A program made the translations under genes and the position numbers. The notes under the pieces are model-generated. The model had not been told where the DNA came from, ran no database searches, and saw only the letters and a program-made list of their open reading frames with translations. Of a DNA stretch of 64,000 nucleotides, positions 12,280 through 63,571 are shown piece after piece; the stretch's first letter is position 1; the number at the start of each line of letters is the position of its first letter. The stretch is taken from the NCBI GenBank assembly GCA_964016885.1, contig OZ024743.1, positions 146,320,001-146,384,000 on the forward strand, read 5' to 3'. Source of the stretch: Eledone cirrhosa (Eukaryota).

Positions 12280-12903
12280 TTAATTAGGTTTATAATATTT
12301 AAATGTTTTTTTTAGTTTATGATTACACGATATAATTAATTCCTGTCGTTTATTTAATAGGATATCCTTAGATTTCATTATTTCAAATAGTTCTTGGGAA
12401 CATAATCTACATTCATTTCTATTATTTTGATAAGGGGTGGCTCTTTTGAGCACACTCCAGGTCAAATCATATTCTATATTCTTATTTTTATAACTATTGA
12501 TTTTTTCTGCTAGAGATGTTGTATTAGCCAGTGCGGCATTTTTAAAACTATGCTTGTGGGTATTAAACCTTGTCTTAAAATTGTTAGAGGTAGCTCCTAT
12601 ATATGAGCAAATAGAATCTTTAGTTTTAACATTACATTTATAGACTATGTTGTTAACAAGACAATTCCCTTTTAATGGGCAGTTTGCTTTGTTTCTACAG
12701 TTACAACCTTTCGTTAATTCTGTATTTGAGGAGATATTATGGTTAATTTGATGTACTGGTGGTATACTTATGGTTTTCTTACATTTATATGCATTATAGG
12801 CACTTATATTTTGTTTTATGTTATTTGTTGTAGAGTATGAGAATTTAACTGTAGACCTATTTAAGATTTGATGGTATTTGTGGTTTGGCGGGAAGTTTTT
12901 CTC
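12280..12903 (-). CDS. PLE polyprotein C-terminus: linker, Cys motif and GIY-YIG endonuclease (open frame, 5'-truncated, no start codon)
   Basis: Manual translation [24 protein letters not shown]...[24 protein letters not shown]...[20 protein letters not shown]...CRLCSQE...[14 protein letters not shown] with no stops. Confidence 0.9.
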
Positions 12904-15422: not shown

Positions 15423-15527
15423 CAGGTACACATACATATATGCACGCATCAGTTTAGCGGACGCTTATTATAACGCCGCTTTGTTCGTTTGTCAACAAAC
15501 ATGCGTGCATATATGTATGTGTACCTG

Positions 15528-15575
<48 letters not shown>

Positions 15576-15611
15576 TGCTACTGTACGTCTGTATACATAT
15601 ATGTATGTACG
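14853..15611 (-). mobile_element. Retrozyme-like non-coding element: ~450-nt unit in partial tandem with an inverted end segment
   Basis: Direct repeat 14853-15008 / 15305-15500, inverted copy 15501-15611, HHR in the unique part. Confidence 0.7.
15080..15124 (-). ncRNA. Canonical minimal type I hammerhead ribozyme
   Basis: AACGGUG-CUGAUGA-U AGCU(AACA)AGCU U-GAA-ACUAGU-A-CAUCGUU; GUA site, 7-bp stem I, palindromic stem III. Confidence 0.9.
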
Positions 15612-16880
15612 TCACTTGTGGCAAAGGCCCTCAACAGGATGATTCTTAACAGGATCCAACCTCAGATGGAGAAGAAGCTCAGGGACAACCAGAATGGCTT
15701 CAGAGAGGGTAGATCAACCACCAGTCACATCCTGATGCTGAGGAGGATATTAGAGGGAGCTAGAGCAAAGTGCCTTCCTGCGGTCATGGTTTTCATTGAC
15801 TTTAGGAAGGCCTTTGATTCTGTGGACCGTTACTGCCTGATGAAGATCTTACAGGCTTATGGAATCCCCAAGAAGATAGTGGACCTGATATCACTGCTCT
15901 ACACCAACACCAAAGCCCAAGTCATTACACCTGATGGGATGACAGAGTTCTTTGAGATACTGGCTGGAGTGCTCCAGGGAGATATATTGGCTCGCTACCT
16001 TTTTATCATCATAGTGGACTATTGTATGCGCCTTGCACTGGAGAAACACCAGGACTCTGGCTTTACTGTAGCACCGGCTCAGAGCAGGAGAGTTAGGGCG
16101 AAAAAGGTATCGGATGCTGAATTTGCCGACGACATAGTTTTGGTGACAAATACAGTGAAGGAGGCAGAGGATTTGATGCGGGAGGTTGAGACTGTGTCGA
16201 TGAGTGTGGGGCTGAGAATGAATGAGACTAAAACAAAATATCTGGTAGAGAATGTTGAGAAGCCAGAGGGGATCACTAATGTAGGCGGGAAGCCGCTGGA
16301 ATTGGTTGAGGACTTCCTGTATTTGGGAGCAAAGATTGGGAATACGGAAGATGATGTGGTTGAGAGGAAGAGCAAGGCCTGGGCGGCGTGCCACAGCTTG
16401 AGATCGGTGTGGAAGTCGAACCTTCGTAGAGACCTGAAAATCCGCCTCTTCATTGCTGTAGTGGAGTCTGTGCTGCTGTATGGGTCTGAGACTTGGACAC
16501 TGACCAAGAAACTCACTCAGATGGTGGATGGGTGCTACACGAGAATGCTGAGGATAGCTCTGAACATTAATCAGTATACACTGAGGATGAAAAACTCAGA
16601 GCTGTATGGGAGCATCCCAAAAGTCAGCTCAAAAGTGACACAGAGGAGACTGAGGTTGGCTGGACATGCTCACCGACATCCAGAGTTGACATTGCACGTA
16701 GTGCTCCTTTGGGAGCCCCTACATGGACACACTAGAAGAGGAAGACCAAGGTTAACATATGTTGATGCCCTAAGGACAGACACTGGTCTGTTGGAGATGC
16801 AGGATATGGCAGCGATAATGAGGGACAGAGACCGCTGGAGAGAACTCGTCCATAGATCTCGGGAATTTTCCCCTCCTTAG
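15612..16880 (+). mobile_element. 5'-truncated RTE-clade LINE with an uninterrupted RT and C-terminal ORF
   Basis: NQNGFREGRS, FIDFRKAFDSV, GVLQGD, FADD, LLYGSETW, LAGH; the first ~41 aa of the ORF track entry are not part of the element. Confidence 0.93.
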
Positions 16881-18753: not shown

Positions 18754-20261
18754 TTAGGTTTGTTGGTTCACCACATTTTACTCAATAATATATATATATC
18801 ATCATCATCATCATCATCATTTTATGTCCGCTTTTCTCTGCTTGCAAGGGTGGGATGGGAACTGATTGTGGCTTGATTTCTACAGCTGGATGCCCTTCCT
18901 AACACCAACCTCATTTACAGTGAGTGCTGGATGCTTTTTTGCTGTGGCACCTCCACGACCACTTTGCAGTGGAATGATAGGGACCCCAGTCCCAATCATC
19001 TCATTTCTACAGCTGAGTCAACTGGAGCAATGTGAAATAAAGTGTCTTGCTCAAGGAAACAACACATCACCCGGTCTGAGAATTGAACTCACAACCTTTC
19101 GATTGCAAGGCCAATGCTCTAACCACTAAGCCATGTGCCTCCATATATATATATATATACACGTTAAACGATGATGATGATGATATATAGATATATATAG
19201 ATATATATGAATAGATAACAACATATGTGCATACCTAACTACATACATAAATACATACCTCTATCTTACATAATCACAAATCCCTAGAACTATCTTGACT
19301 AAAAATAAAATCTAGTTACTTTGTTAGTGAGCCACTTAACCCTTTAGCATTTACATTACTCTATATATATGGTGGCACATGGCTTAGTGGTTAGAGCATT
19401 GGCTTTGCAATCGAAAGGTTGTGAGTTCAATTCTCAGACCGGGTGATGTGTTGTTTACTTGAGCAAGACACTTTATTTCACATTGCTCCAGTTTACTCAG
19501 CTGTAGAAACGAGATGATAGGGACTGGGGTCCCTATCATTTCACTGCAAAGTGGTCGTGCAGGTGCCACGGCAAAAAAGCACCCAGCACTCACTGTAAAT
19601 GAGGTTGGTGTTAGGAAGTGCTTCCAGCTGTAGAAACCAAGCCAACAATCAGTTCCCGTCCCACCCTTGTAAGCAGGAAAAAGCGGACGTAAAATGAAAT
19701 GATGATGATGATGATGATACTATTATATTTTGGGGTTAAAGGCTTTACCTCACATAACATCTCACATAATATCAAATCTATGAGATTTTGATATTATTTG
19801 TTTTGAGAACAATACCTTAACATCAGTACGAGCAGCCAGTTATGGTCGGTTTGGACAGAAAGAGGTAAGAGAATTCTGGCCAGATATGGCCGGTTTAAAT
19901 GCTAAAGGGTTAAATTCTGTAAAGAAGAACTAACTTAAATAAATCTCATAAAAAGAATATATGCAAACATGCATATATGAGGGCCGGCTGAAATGTTCAC
20001 AGACAGAACAAGATACTCTCATGGAATGACCAAATGAGGTTAATTTTTCAATATAGTCCCTGGAAAGAAACAATGCAGTTATTAATAAGAACAGTTGATA
20101 TTAATGCATACAATATTTCACAGCTTTAGCATCACCCCTTTATAGTCAGCCTACGATATTTTCAGCTGACCATTGTATATATATATATATATATATATAA
20201 TCAAGGTTTAGCAAATAAGAAAAAGTTTCAAAATAAATTTCAAAAAATTCACTGCATGGTT

Positions 20262-20326
20262 ACCTTTGCCGAAACGGTTTCGAGTCTCAAAAATAATCTA
20301 GAAAAGATAAACTCTCGTCAGAAGGT
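20262..20326 (-). ncRNA. Type I hammerhead copy with U16.1C change (GCA site) and shortened stem II
   Basis: ACCUU-CUGACGA-GAGUUU...AGACUC-GAA-ACCG(UUU)CGGC-A-AAGGU. Confidence 0.7.
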
Positions 20327-20726
20327 TCTTTTCCCTCGGAGAATATAAAATTCCCAAGTTCGAATTACGAACCGGCGCTATTCAAAATTGTTCCCGAGAT
20401 GAGAATGAATGATGTGGAAGCAATTCTGTCCAGTGCCGTGTGCAAAGATAGAAGGCAAAGGCAGGGAGGTCAATCTACTACCACTATAAATAGCAGTAGT
20501 CAAAACGACCAAATTTTATCTCGACCAGGGGGAGATTAATAATAATAAAGTATATATCCCTACACACAAAAATCGTATAGGGACACATGTATTATCCAAC
20601 CATATGCCAATGTGGTTCAATGGCAGGTTAATAAATTAACGAGCCAGAACATATATAATCAAGGTTTAGCAAATAAGAAAAAGTTTCAAAATAAATTTCA
20701 AAAAATTCACTGTACTTACTATGGTT

Positions 20727-20813
20727 ACCTTTACCGAAACGGTTTCGAGTCTCAAAAATAAATGGATAGTCCTTGCGGGCCTCCATTGAAAAGATAAACT
20801 CTCGTCAGAAGGT
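20727..20813 (-). ncRNA. Intact type I hammerhead with extended, GCAA-capped stem II
   Basis: ACCUU-CUGACGA-GAGUUU..AAUGGA..CC(GCAA)GG..UCCAUU..AGACUC-GAA-ACCG(UUU)CGGU-A-AAGGU. Confidence 0.88.
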
Positions 20814-21611
20814 TCTTTTCACTCGGAGAATATAAAATTCCCGAGTTCGAATTACGAACTGGCGCTATTCAAAATTGTTCCCGAGATGAGAATGAATGAT
20901 GTGGAAGCATAAAATACACATACATACACATGTTCATATATACATAAATACATACACACTCACACATACACACAATTATTAATATCTTTGGTTATGTTAC
21001 TAAATGTCTAAGTAGTAATGTTTCTAGTAAATGAAGAGACCAGCAAACACATACATTGTAAGAACCAAGAGATTGGCAGAATCGGTAGAGCATCAGACAA
21101 CATGCTTAGCAACATAGAATTACAGCCCTTTACGTTCTGAGTTCAAATCCCGTTGAAGTTAGCTTTGCCTTTCATCCTTACAGGTTTAATAAAATAAAAT
21201 ACCAGTAATGCACTGGGGTTCGATTTTATCACCTTTCCCTTTCCTCCAAAAATTGTTGGCTTTGTGCCTAAATTAGAAACCATTATTTTATACAAGACCC
21301 ACCGAGGTTAACTTTGCCTTTCATCCTTACGGGGTCGATAAAATAAAGTACCAGTAAAACACTGGGATAATTGCTGGCCTTGTGCCAAAAGTAGAAACAA
21401 TTATTTTATACAAGACCTTTCTAAATTTCACCACGTTACTCTTATGTGAAGTCCAGCAATCAGCTCCATTTTATAGGAGGAATTCAAATAATGAAAAAAG
21501 AAGAAAATTGGCATACATATACATACATACAGGGCCAGATTTAGACCTTGGGGGTTTAGGTTTGGTGGGTTCCTTATATAACAACACTCACACACATGTA
21601 TGTGTGTTCTT

Positions 21612-41673: not shown

Positions 41674-44600
41674 TCATCATCATCATCATCATCATCGTTT
41701 AACGTCTATCTTCCACGCTAGCATTGGTTTAGATGGGAATTGCCCCACTTGAGGCAAGGTTGGTCGTCTCGCTCATATGGGACTGTCTGGCAGGTTTTCT
41801 ACGGCTGGATGCCCTTCCTAACACCAACCACGTTTACAGTATGGACTGGGAGGTTTTTACTCTGTTACCTACAAGGCCACATTACAGCGTGGACTGTGTG
41901 TTTTTTTGTCATGACACCTACACAACATCATTTATTTAGGACTGGATGTTGTGGTACCAACATAACTTTACAGAGAAAGGGGCGGTGTTGATGGGGGTGG
42001 GGGAGTTGGGGGGGGGGTAATGGGAGGGGTGTGGGTGTATATTTGATTAAGAGGTACCTACTGACTGTAGGTTTCACTTTGTACATAGGCAAGGCGGGTT
42101 TTCTGTATTACTGCGTAGCGCCAAAGATCTCGGTCCAGTGACATTGTCTTGGAGAGGTGTAAGTGTGTAAGGTCGGAATTTATCAAATCGTCCCAGGTTT
42201 TTCTGGGTCTGCCTACTCCGTAACTTCCGTCAATTTTGATCGCCCTGCACTTTTTTTATACAGCTGTCATCTTTCATGCGCATTACGTGACCATATCAAC
42301 ATAGTCTTCTCTCGAGTAAACAGCATCTGATCCCTCTTATTCCTAATTTCTCACTTAGTTCATTTATGCTTTGCTGTTCACGTATATTACTATTACACAT
42401 CCAGCGGAGCATGAATGCTTCATTCCTCTCCAGTCTGCACAGATCCTCTGCACACAATGCCCATGTCTCACTGTAATGTAACATAGCTGTTCGTATGCAG
42501 GCATCATACAGTCTGCCTTTCATTTTTAGAGAGAAACCTTTAGTGGCCAATAATGGTATAAGCTCTCTGAACTTTTTCCATCCCATTCTGACTCTGGCTA
42601 CTGTACTTTCTGAGCACCCTCCACCACTGCTGATTTTATCACCCAGGTAATGGAAGGTGTTCACTATTTCTATAGAGCCATCTGGGCAATAGAAGGAGCT
42701 AGTATCCAGTGGGCACTTGCTACTTATTGCACCTGAGCACCGGCCACATATAAAATCTACGTTCTTAGATAGCTTACCTGTGATCCCACTACATCTTTTA
42801 TGCACCCATACTTTGCATTTGGGACATAAAATGGAATTTCTGCCTACTCCTTTCTTACACACTGAGCATGGCCATTTCCCAGAGGGGACCTGTGCCCTAT
42901 TTTCCTTCCTACATACTAGAACTTTAGTCTTAGACAAGTTAATTTTAAGGTCTTTTGATTCTAGGCCATGCTTCCATGTTTGGAATTTCTTCTCTAGTTC
43001 AACCATCGATTCAGCTATGAGCGTTAGATAGTCTGCATAGAGAAGTTCCCATGGGCAGCCGGTCTTGAACTCCTCTGTTATTGCCTGAAGGGCAATAATA
43101 AATAGGAGGGGGCTAAGGACAGAGCCCTGATGGACACCAACTTTTATGCTAAATTCTTCACTATATTCGTTGTTAATTCTAACCTTGCTGACTGTTTCTT
43201 TATACATGGCTTGTATAGCTCTCACAAGCCATTCATCAACCCCTAGTTTTCTAAGGGCCCACCAGATAATGGCGTGGGGGACTCTTTCAAATGCTTTCTC
43301 CAAGTCATCAAAAGCTAAGTATAAGGGTTTACTTTGAGCCAGCTACTTCTCCTGTAGTTATCGTACAAGGAAAAGGGCGTCTGTGGTACTTTTACCCGAC
43401 ACAAACCGAAACTGCATTTTGTCTAGATCAATTTGCTCTCTGATTAGTTGCGCTATAACCTTTTCTGTGACCTTCATGACATGGTCAATTAATTTAATAC
43501 CTCTATAGTTTCTTCTATCTAGTGCATCTCCTTTACCCTTGTAGCAGTTAATGATGATGCTGCTACGCCAGTCATTTCAGTCATTTGGTATGACCCCGTT
43601 CTGTATGACTTGGTTAACTATCCGGGTGACCATAGTGTGTCCCACCGTTCCAGATGCTTTCAGCATTTCAGCAACTATCTCCGAAGGCCCAACTGCCTTG
43701 CCTGTCTTCATATCTTTGATTGCCTTACTTATTATACCTTCAACTTGCACTGCTGGTCGCTCTATTGGATCGATGTGGGACAAACTATCTTTGTCCCATT
43801 TATTCTCCATATTTAGTAGCCTCTCGTAGTGACACTTCCAAGCTACATTCTTACCAGCGTCAGTGATGGCAAGTACGCCATCATCATTACGGACACACTT
43901 CTCCCCGACAATATCATGGTTTTCCTTGACACATTGCCTAGCAATCCTGAACACCTCACCTTTTTGGTCCTCGCATTGTAGAACATGCTTGAACTGTCTT
44001 TCCTCTGCTTCCCTTCTTGCAAAGTACACTTGTCTCCTAGCTTCCCTCCTGGCCACTTGATAGTCTTCTCTACTTCCCCCATTCCGCCTGCTTTTTGGCC
44101 TTAATTGACTCCTCCACCTTACTGTTCCACCACCACGTTACTCTCCTCCTGCCTATAGGCCTGCTCCAGCCACAGATTTCATCTGTTGCCTTCAGCAGGT
44201 TAACTTTCAGGAATTCCCACTGTTCCTCTATATTGTGCAACTCTAATTGCTCTTCCTTACTGTCAAAAGCATCAAGTAATATGCTTTTAAATTTGTTACT
44301 GGCTGTGGGGTCCTTTAACTTCCATATTCTTCTCCTTAGGGTAGTCCTCCTCTGTTGTCGAGTACGTCTCATCCTGACTATGAGGTTGCTAACTATGAGG
44401 CTATGTTGGGAGGTGCATTCTTCATGGGGGAGGGATTTAGTGTTTACAACAGACACTCTGTCATGTCTTCTGGTAAGGATATAATCTATCTGACTGGCAT
44501 GTTCCCCTGATCTATAGGAGATCAAAGGATTGTCTTGTTTTTTGAAGTTAGTGTTACAGATAGTTAGGTTATTTGTGTCACAGAATTCCAGGATTCTGGA

Positions 44601-45270
44601 GCCTTCCTCATTTCTAGTACCAAACCCATAGCCTCCATGGATTCCGTCATAGCCGTCACAATGTTGTCCAACATGACCATTTAGGTCACCAGCAATAACT
44701 ATGTAGTGACTGTCGGTTATTTGGGAGGCAGTGAGCATTAGAGACTCATAGAATCTGTCTTTTATAACGCCAGGCAGTCTGGATTGGGGTGCATATACGG
44801 ATTTTATTGTCACAGTAGTTCTATTGAGGACAAGTCTTATTTTAATTATTCTGTCGTTCACTCTATTTACGTCTATTATCTTATCTACCCATTTTTCTGC
44901 TAACATGATTCCTACTCCACCCAGGCCATTGTCATTTCCCACCCAGAAAAGTTTATAGCATCGTTTTTTACCCACAATGAATCTAGCAAACCCACCCCTC
45001 CACCTGGTCTCTTGAATACAGCAAACATCAACTTCCTTATGTTCAAGCATCTCTACAACTTCGTTAGAGCGACCTTTTAAAGTGCCTACATTCATGGTAC
45101 CAACTCTGAAGTTTTGGATTGCGTTTGGTGGGTGGGAAGGATGAGGCGCAGAGAGGGTGAGGGAGATGGGGTTATGTTAGCCACCCGTGGCCGAAATAAA
45201 GAGGAGGAGGCCTTGCATTCTCGTCTGGCAACATGAGGTGAATTTATCTTTATCTTTGACATTGTCATTG
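41674..45270 (-). mobile_element. Near full-length RTE LINE (APE endonuclease, RT, PHD-like finger), frameshifted and with stops
   Basis: NVGTL..CIQETRW..SVYAPQ..AGDLNGHVG..SQIDYIL..SQH; EKAFERVP, GVHQGSVLSP, LLYAD(Y); (GAT)n tail. Confidence 0.96.
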
Positions 45271-54657: not shown

Positions 54658-55550
54658 ACAGGGAGAAAGAGACGATTATGAGGAAGCAAAAAAATTTTTT
54701 TTTTCCTTTTTTTGTCTCCCTCTCTCTTTTTTCTGGGTTAGAAAATGATTAAAACGAAATGTTTTACTTTGTGTGAAGTGTTAAGGTATTAGTTGATTTA
54801 TTTATTATTTAACAATGGCATTTATTTATCTATTTATATATTTAATTATTATATATATTTAATTATTATATATATTATATATTATATATTATATATATAT
54901 ATAAAAAGGTGCAGAGCACTAGAAGTTGATGGAAACCGCGGAGTGGGGAGACCCAAGATGACCTGGGATGAGGTGATAAAAGCCGACCTTACCCAATTAC
55001 ACCTCTCAAAGGCAATGACACACGACCGTGACTTCTGGCGTCACGCAGTAATACAGAGTACCCGACCTCCCATGGGTACATGCTGAAGCATATAGACAAT
55101 ATGCCCCCACACCCCCCACCACAAGGTGGTCGTGGAGGAGCCACGGCAAAAATGCACCCAGCCCACACTGTAAAGTGGATGTGTAGGCGCCATGAAAAAG
55201 CACCCAGCACTCACTGTAAATGAGGTTGGTGTTAGGAAGGGCATCCAGCTGTAGAAATCAAGCCAGATCAGTTCCTGTATGAGCAAGGCATGGTCAGCCG
55301 ACCAGACACTTCACACAACAGGACAACCCGTCTAACCCATGCTAGCGTGGAAGAACGGACGTAAAACGGTGATGATGATGATGATGATGATATATATATA
55401 TATATATATAACCAAAGATTAATATTATTCATTGATTACTTAATGAATATAGTTTTAAAATAGATTAAAAGCACTCTACAAAGAAGTTTTCTAGAGTTAG
55501 TAATATTATTCAAAATATTAATAAATGAATATGTTCACATAATCAAAATA

Positions 55551-55620
55551 TATGTTTTATTATATATATTTCGGAGGTACTGTGCTGTTTTTTCAGTACG
55601 CCCTCATCAGATAAAATATA
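55551..55620 (-). ncRNA. Type I hammerhead in a foldback pLTR-like element (55410-55716), related to the 30455 family
   Basis: UUUUAU-CUGAUGA-GGGC GUACUG(11 nt)CAGUAC CUCC-GAA-AUAUAUAU-A-AUAAAA; inverted repeat 55503-55553 / 55666-55716. Confidence 0.82.
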
Positions 55621-62298: not shown

Positions 62299-62367
62299 AA
62301 AAAGAGATGAAATCGAAAATGCAACTGGAGTCTTATTTTAAAAAAAAATATATTTATTTATTTGGTT

Positions 62368-62405
62368 CCTTTACCGGTTTCGCAGTTCTTCTGCTTTTCA
62401 AAAGG
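62368..62405 (-). ncRNA. 38-nt minimal hammerhead with U3:A8 core in a ~400-bp TA-flanked element (62295-62690)
   Basis: CCUU-UUGAAAA-GCAG(AAGAA)CUGC-GAA-ACCGGU-A-AAGG. Confidence 0.8.
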
Positions 62406-62828
62406 TGAGTTGAGATGGAGGGTCTGTGGTTTTTCTCACATCTGGTTGGTCTCTGAATGTTACTTGTTTTATATGGAAAAAGTGGCTCGAAATGCCAGGT
62501 TTTTCGAGAAGTAATTTGATTGGTTTGTCAATAATTATAATAAATTTCGCGCCAGTTCGCGTTACAATAGTTCTTCAAATAAGAGGGAGGGGGGGGGGGG
62601 GTTGTCACAGGTTGTTTTTTCATATATGAGTGTTTGAATTTCTTTTTACTTGAAAAAAGGAGGCTCACGAAGGCTTTTTTTTGGTTGGTTATATATATAT
62701 ATATATACACATATATGTTCCACCACACCATGAACAGATTGGTCACATCACCAGTGAGGCTGATGCCATTGGCTGCCTCCTCTTCTTAGATGTATGTTTT
62801 ATTATTGAACTTAAACACATAGCCCCCT

Positions 62829-63110
62829 CGCTATGTTGATGATATCAATATTGTAGTAAAAATACCCCTACAAGAGAGTACCCATGGATCAGAACTAGAA
62901 GCTTGCACCATGGGGAGCATCCAGCAAATAGCTAACTCCATCTACCAGAGCATTAAAGTAACAGTAGACCACCCCACTAAACACCCCAATCGCAGACTGC
63001 CCATGTTAGACACAGAACTCTGGATGGAAACTAAGAATGATAAGGTCCAAATCCTCCATTCACATTATACCAAACCCATGGCCTCAAAGTATCTGATCCA
63101 CCAGAGTTCA
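62829..63110 (+). pseudogene. PLE reverse transcriptase fragment
   Basis: RYVDDINI...IANSIYQSIKVTVDHP..RLPMLDTELW..HYTKPMAS in one frame. Confidence 0.85.
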
Positions 63111-63571
63111 GATCTAGTTGTCAAAATGGCCGGAGCTCAGTCCTGACTCTTTTCCTATTATTACCCACTCTACTACCCTAAGTATTGAGTACTCTGGTGT
63201 GTTATGATTCATCTGTAGCCATATATGTATATATTATCATCATTCATCATTTCATTTTACGTCCACTTTTCCCTGCTTGCAAGGGTGGGACAGGAACTGA
63301 TTCTGGCTTGATTTCTACAGCTGGATGCCCTTCCTAACACCAACCTCATTTACAGTGAGTGCTGGGTGCTTTTTTGCCATGGCACCTCCACGAATGATAG
63401 TGGAATGATAGGGACCCCAGTCCCTATCACCTCATTTCTACAGCTGAGTAAACTGGAGCAATGTGAAATAAAGTGTCTTGCTCAAGGAAACAACACATCA
63501 CCCGATCTGAGAATTGAACTCACAACCTTTCGATTGCAAGCCCAATGCTCTAACCACTAAGCCATGTGCCT

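Follow-up and report, generated by a model that had tools for sequence, protein, structure and literature searches.

The window analysed here is a 64,000-nt stretch of Eledone cirrhosa contig OZ024743.1 (GCA_964016885.1, positions 146,320,001 to 146,384,000), and all positions below count from its first letter. On its minus strand, at 20193-20909, lies an insertion of about 1.5 units that is 5'-truncated and consists of a single arm, without an inverted arm. A direct repeat of 259 positions occupies both ends of the element, and each copy of the repeat contains a type I hammerhead. This repeat is a partial tandem: its 5' start varies, it encloses no unique internal sequence, and a true LTR organisation is absent. 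The features of the locus are as follows:

20193-20909, minus strand: the insertion as a whole (717 bp), made up of a complete 487-nt unit and a partial terminal one that is damaged
20423-20909, minus strand: the full 487-nt unit, near the subfamily A majority, with 1-2 rare alleles
20727-20813, minus strand: upstream type I hammerhead, intact core, GUA; predicted cut after 20732
20761-20787, minus strand: distal stem II hairpin in the form standard for the family; U-A becomes C-G in other subfamilies
20666-20721, minus strand: long hairpin predicted in the interval from the cut site to the main end site
20651-20658, minus strand: the UA-rich main end site in its internal copy, 81 nt beyond the cut
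20537-20551, minus strand: second UA-rich end site, some 181-198 nt beyond the cut; the inverted arms of other copies terminate here
20262-20326, minus strand: damaged downstream hammerhead, 4 nt at 20297-20300 in place of the distal hairpin, U16.1C at 20268
20254-20257, minus strand: junction of a private 7-nt deletion, just past the downstream cut site
20267-20731, minus strand: cut-to-cut stretch of 465 nt, found at this locus alone
20175-20200, no strand assigned: the 3' end of the element gives way to (TA)n, the kind of tract that the family usually targets

The first-pass annotation had described two hammerheads cutting at 20732 and 20267, one with a GUA site, a 4-bp stem III and a GCAA-capped extension of stem II, the other with U16.1C and without the extension, and these minus-strand motifs are present as described, with the predicted cuts 465 nt apart. 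In the upstream copy, stem I pairs ACCUU with AAGGU, the core elements CUGACGA and GAAA lie at 20808-20802 and 20746-20743, the stem II region of 55 nt carries the distal hairpin with its GCAA cap, and stem III has 4 bp (A15.1-U16.1 included) closed by a UUU loop, with N17 of the GUA triplet at 20732. The downstream copy retains CUGACGA and GAAA, has a 33-nt stem II region and, through U16.1C, the triplet GCA, with N17 at 20267. Its copy of the unit is shortened by a 22-nt loss from stem II and by the 7-nt deletion, the latter absent from the earlier description, and 487 nt have become 465. The window has no Rfam hammerhead match at gathering score, probably because of the long stem II.

In folding models that leave out pseudoknots, the predicted cost of adopting the active fold is 1.5 kcal/mol for the upstream 87-nt ribozyme and 4.8 kcal/mol for the downstream one, or 5.0 and 7.2 kcal/mol when flanks are included. 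Changes at positions 15.1/16.1 reduce hammerhead activity at least tenfold according to PMC3088659. By these predictions the locus would cut well at 20732 and poorly at 20267, and because the downstream ribozyme carries both U16.1C and a second deletion, monomer release from 20193-20909 is probably inefficient.

Other repeats lie close by. A short element at 19980-20176 adjoins the insertion, and its ends appear to resemble mariner-type inverted repeats. Two inverted copies of a tRNA-like SINE occupy 18869-19644 (283 nt, 95%), with further tRNA-like heads at 2621-2680 and 63507-63564, and the frames at 15474-16880 (+) and 42296-45176 (-) are, on their motifs, presumably LINE-type reverse transcriptase and endonuclease frames.

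Copy number and the shortened ribozyme

A search of the 3.0-Gb genome with the element gave 3,019 candidates, 40 of which were scored. A 30-mer from the long stem II had 560 exact matches and the junction of the 3' end with (TA)n had 1,041, each against 0 for its control. The stem III/cut-site motif matched exactly 2,827 times against 0 for its reversed counterpart, and the hammerhead motif is therefore not due to chance. With motif matches at more than 1,000 places the unit is multicopy, and the retrozyme family proposed in the first-pass annotation stands; the 465-nt monomer proposed as its product does not. Of 46 distinct monomers, 44 have a cut-to-cut length of 478-489 nt; the remaining two measure 471 nt and the 465 nt of the window, a length that occurs at this locus only. 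The family unit is 482-487 nt. Its GC content is 38%, and it contains no long reading frame, nor do arrays of up to 9 ribozymes. Four subfamily majority sequences are 82-96% identical, and the youngest sampled arrays are built of 483-nt units. One of these, L142 (G000:C1:82113500-82123400), is a very young two-armed array of 9 ribozymes at 483-nt spacing in which 7 of the 8 complete units are identical. Related pieces are also present in sequencing data of a second organism.

The shortened second ribozyme is damage private to the 20193-20909 copy. The first-pass annotation had regarded the stem II extension as modular, and had offered two template variants or decay after insertion as sources of the difference between the copies. 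If long and short templates both circulated, the short one giving a 465-nt RNA, the short junction should not be as solitary as it is: with up to one mismatch allowed it has a single match in the genome, which is the window locus. A single pattern with two gap ranges found 941 long and 16 shortened forms genome-wide (the pattern does not fit the youngest subfamily), and the stem II region measures 52-57 nt in 120 of 121 sampled ribozymes. The 16 short forms carry assorted deletions that are mostly unlike each other, although a few recur, as the modular reading would allow. More in its favour is the concentration of changes in the terminal copy, which has 4 rare substitutions (U16.1C and three more) and 2 deletions within 259 positions, against just 1-2 rare alleles per 487 positions in the neighbouring unit, and which could thus stem from another template; coral retrozymes, moreover, include a 20-nt indel pair (PMC7229834). 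Against this, the short junction adjoins U16.1C, which is found in only 1 of 123 other units, and the distal helix is conserved, its U-A to C-G swap being compensatory. For this assembly the modular reading is already largely refuted, and we regard it as very improbable. Decay of this copy fits, and damage at insertion or afterwards is compatible with the data.

Insertion footprint, driver and template

To describe the insertions we used 90 loci, corresponding to 93 of the first 100 junction matches listed, all on contig C1; five matches from loci already sampled and the last two of the 100 were left out of the arm sample. Four rows were dropped (no alignment, an N run, a duplicate, and one that ran off the stretch), giving 89 arms, all of which end, by selection, at the UA-rich site 81 nt past the cut. 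These end-anchored arms are 36-1,184 nt long with ragged 5' ends. Eight fall short of the cut site. The other 81 run through it, 66 of them a single time and 15 at least twice (13 twice, 2 three times); the whole unit is contained in 23 of the 89. Upstream of the end, arms go on round the unit or stop in a microsatellite or an inverted arm. An inverted, head-to-head arm is present in at least 25 of the 89 (L112 was missed), and 24 of these 25 end 181-198 nt past the cut. Loci selected by ribozyme have the same two end sites as those selected by end. In 23 of the 25 pairs more than 20 nt of the first arm are copied again in the inverted one, an overlap at odds with classical twin priming on one linear monomer.

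The family thus bears a Penelope-type footprint of truncation, inverted arm, tail and microsatellite target, and from this footprint alone we infer that the driver is likely a Penelope-like reverse transcriptase. The window itself contains a Penelope-type reverse transcriptase fragment at 62823-63146 (+), which belongs to a very abundant family and as a query gave 11,230 candidates, 150 of them scored. Some of these relatives have frames of more than 1,000 residues and hammerheads of their own, smaller than those of the retrozyme. We take the local Penelope-type elements to be Neptune, on a reading of their motifs; Pfam gives the local element a weak reverse transcriptase match only. The Neptune-type elements end in (TA)n, and one locus, L051, is head-to-head with its two ends about 45 nt apart. 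In 30 loci of these elements, ends included, no nucleotide homology with the unit was found; the lone match was a 53-nt AT-rich stretch outside the element.

The partner search consisted of this one Neptune-type query, which leaves some room for the unit to be the terminal repeat of an autonomous Penelope-like element; such terminal repeats do have hammerheads and form partial tandems (PMC8557442). No autonomous element with the same 3' end was present among the 90 end-selected loci, however, and a frame combining reverse transcriptase with GIY-YIG endonuclease is absent from the unit and from the arrays. The arms continue round the unit or terminate in simple repeats or inverted arms, and arrays reach 9 ribozymes without a frame, neither of which suits a terminal repeat. 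A satellite spread by DNA recombination fares no better, since copies that are dispersed, fixed at the 3' end and ragged at the 5' end do not form a recombination pattern. We consider this pair of explanations improbable.

What was copied is a separate question, for which the same element and driver could have used a linear multimer, transcribed from a tandem array and left uncut; the hammerhead would then do no more than trim transcripts, and a circle would not be needed. A cut linear monomer is not the template: it would yield 81-nt copies, which are unseen, and the cut is crossed by 81 of the 89 arms. The median difference between units is 3.8% inside an insertion and 8.0% between insertions (165 units, 73 loci), and 11 of 137 alleles seen exactly twice fall within one insertion where 1.0 is expected. 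Uniform donor arrays such as L142 would give a linear multimer both the read-through and the shared alleles. Two further details lean the same way: 5' ends are slightly frequent near the cut, short of a clear pile-up (9 lie within 10 nt of it, compared with 21 in the flanking 100 nt; p = 0.06), and in L143 a two-base variant is common to 2 of 3 units and absent from the third, which one circular template does not explain. Yet L142 and L143 are separated by 4 fixed differences, and arrays uniform inside with fixed differences between them indicate passage through one monomer; a conserved active core, besides, would be expected to cut such multimers. We therefore think a linear multimer unlikely, if the most serious of the alternatives. 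Taken together, cut-site read-through, alleles shared within insertions and fixed differences between arrays favour repeated copying of one monomer, most simply from a circular template. No RNA-editing scar was found, A>G showing no excess over T>C on the ribozyme strand (49/10,561 vs 83/14,973, p = 0.33).

Ribozyme structure and fold of the predicted circle

Between subfamilies, a U-A pair of stem I is replaced by C-G, G-C pairs at two positions of stem II by A-U, and a U-A pair of the distal stem II helix by C-G, while the stem III loop is variable. Because of these compensatory changes we regard the stem II extension as a conserved part of the RNA. Many compensated pairs occur in other hairpins of the unit, among subfamilies that are 82-96% identical, and one-sided changes in the 20666-20721 hairpin preserve its pairing. 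The sequence GTRAGT past the cut was considered as a retained intron and rejected: one subfamily has GCAGGT there, and the variants preserve hairpin pairing instead.

A candidate pseudoknot would join two further segments of the upstream ribozyme region:

20814-20821, minus strand: candidate 5' strand, directly preceding stem I
20787-20794, minus strand: candidate 3' strand, in the stem II internal loop

In the main haplotypes these 8-nt segments can form 7-8 of 8 pairs, and an A-G mismatch is present in 44 of 121 ribozymes. At one position, counted by script over 157 copies because the alignment set subfamily B wrongly in that region, the pair is A-U in 120, G-C in 32, G-U in 2 and unpaired in 3. 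This compensated pair represents one evolutionary event, with an intermediate lineage that retains A-U, and a small competing hairpin upstream could account for half of the compensatory change. On covariation of this extent, the odds that the pseudoknot exists appear about even.

The consensus circle folds with z = -6.7 on the ribozyme strand and -3.7 on the antisense strand (60 shuffles), and the predicted probability of stem I is at most 0.07 in all four subfamily circles, calculated without pseudoknot energy. These predictions would be compatible with a one-shot switch. In it, the pseudoknot and the extended stem II would restrict cutting to the time of transcription, and folding of the ligated circle would then shut the ribozyme down; a Penelope-type enzyme, working from both sides of a (TA)n break, would start synthesis at two fixed UA-rich sites on a single circle and travel round it. 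We offer this scheme tentatively, as possible but doubtful in its full form. If it is true, the genome records rolling-circle retrotransposition across several successive subfamilies.

Proposed mechanism and relation to known retrozymes

Our preferred reading, to which we assign a probability of roughly 0.7, takes the locus for a damaged insertion, 1.5 units long, from a non-coding hammerhead retrozyme family of high copy number that is likely circularised and copied into (TA)n by a Penelope-like reverse transcriptase. Tandem copies would be transcribed, and the transcript cut at GUA during transcription, possibly aided by the pseudoknot; the monomer would then be ligated into a circle whose predicted fold inactivates the ribozyme. 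Synthesis may be primed by a nicked (TA)n end, at the UA-rich site 81 nt beyond the cut for the first arm and at the site about 190 nt beyond it for a second, and copying would proceed round the circle until synthesis stops.

Judged by its sequence, the family falls within the non-LTR retrozymes as these are defined in PMC7229834 and 10.64898/2026.07.22.740005. With the metazoan non-LTR retrozymes of Cervera and de la Pena (2020; PMC7229834) it shares non-coding tandem type I hammerhead units, low GC, a self-paired predicted circle and occurrence alongside Penelope-like elements. It differs from them in unit length (482-487 nt against about 170-400 nt), in its 52-57-nt stem II region with a distal hairpin, and in the predicted state of the ribozyme in the circle: blocked here, but free in most of the metazoan circles treated there. 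Like the Penelope-derived vertebrate retrozymes described by Li, Clavereau and Pollet (2026; 10.64898/2026.07.22.740005), it has monomer, dimer and multimer copies, and its length lies within their range of 51-972 bp. Penelope-like elements are proposed there to mobilise vertebrate retrozymes, and frog retrozymes are homologous to element terminal repeats, in contrast to the 30 Neptune-type loci here. Molluscs and insertion ends do not figure in the parts of that study covered here, and 8 of its 9 predicted frog retrozyme dimers gave no cleavage in vitro, which weighs against the mechanism proposed here. The study's rule of two complete ribozymes excludes the window locus, because the second core is damaged by U16.1C.

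Penelope-like elements (Craig et al. 2021; PMC8557442) likewise have 5' truncation, partial tandems, an inverted 5' arm, a tail and microsatellite targets; the family here has no reading frame, and its tail is about 100-117 nt rather than 30-40 bp. We read the topology of the candidate pseudoknot as that of the hammerheads in PMC3088659 (Perreault et al. 2011), with the differences that the partner here lies in an internal loop under a further hairpin, that the ribozyme belongs to a high-copy animal repeat, and that one pair is compensated. We found no description of the 482-487-nt family in the literature covered, although supplements to it may list cephalopod hammerheads. The retrozymes, a kind already known, thus gain a new family, and a modular ribozyme domain and a 465-nt RNA are unsupported.

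In the parts of the retrozyme literature covered, circular templates and Penelope-like mobilisation are proposals rather than demonstrations, and this family offers testable genomic footprints of copying along with young, near-identical arrays. The hammerhead is unusually large, and both its candidate pseudoknot and its predicted self-blocking can be tested directly.

Several minor observations concern other elements. In L051 and L052 the Neptune-type elements have 3' ends that lie inside the beginning of the elements' own frame. One Neptune-type end at these loci has a 7-nt motif in common with the main end of the retrozyme. At 12283-12900 (-) a GIY-YIG-like frame is represented by its 3' fragment, which has a CxC motif and no Pfam match and appears to resemble a Naiad element. 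A decayed hammerhead-like motif of another repeat family, its first core half altered, lies at 62340-62410 (-), with a similar repeat in L058, and a minimal hammerhead-like motif, its stem III palindromic and TA-rich, lies at 55550-55620 (-), with similar motifs in L032, L053 and L057.
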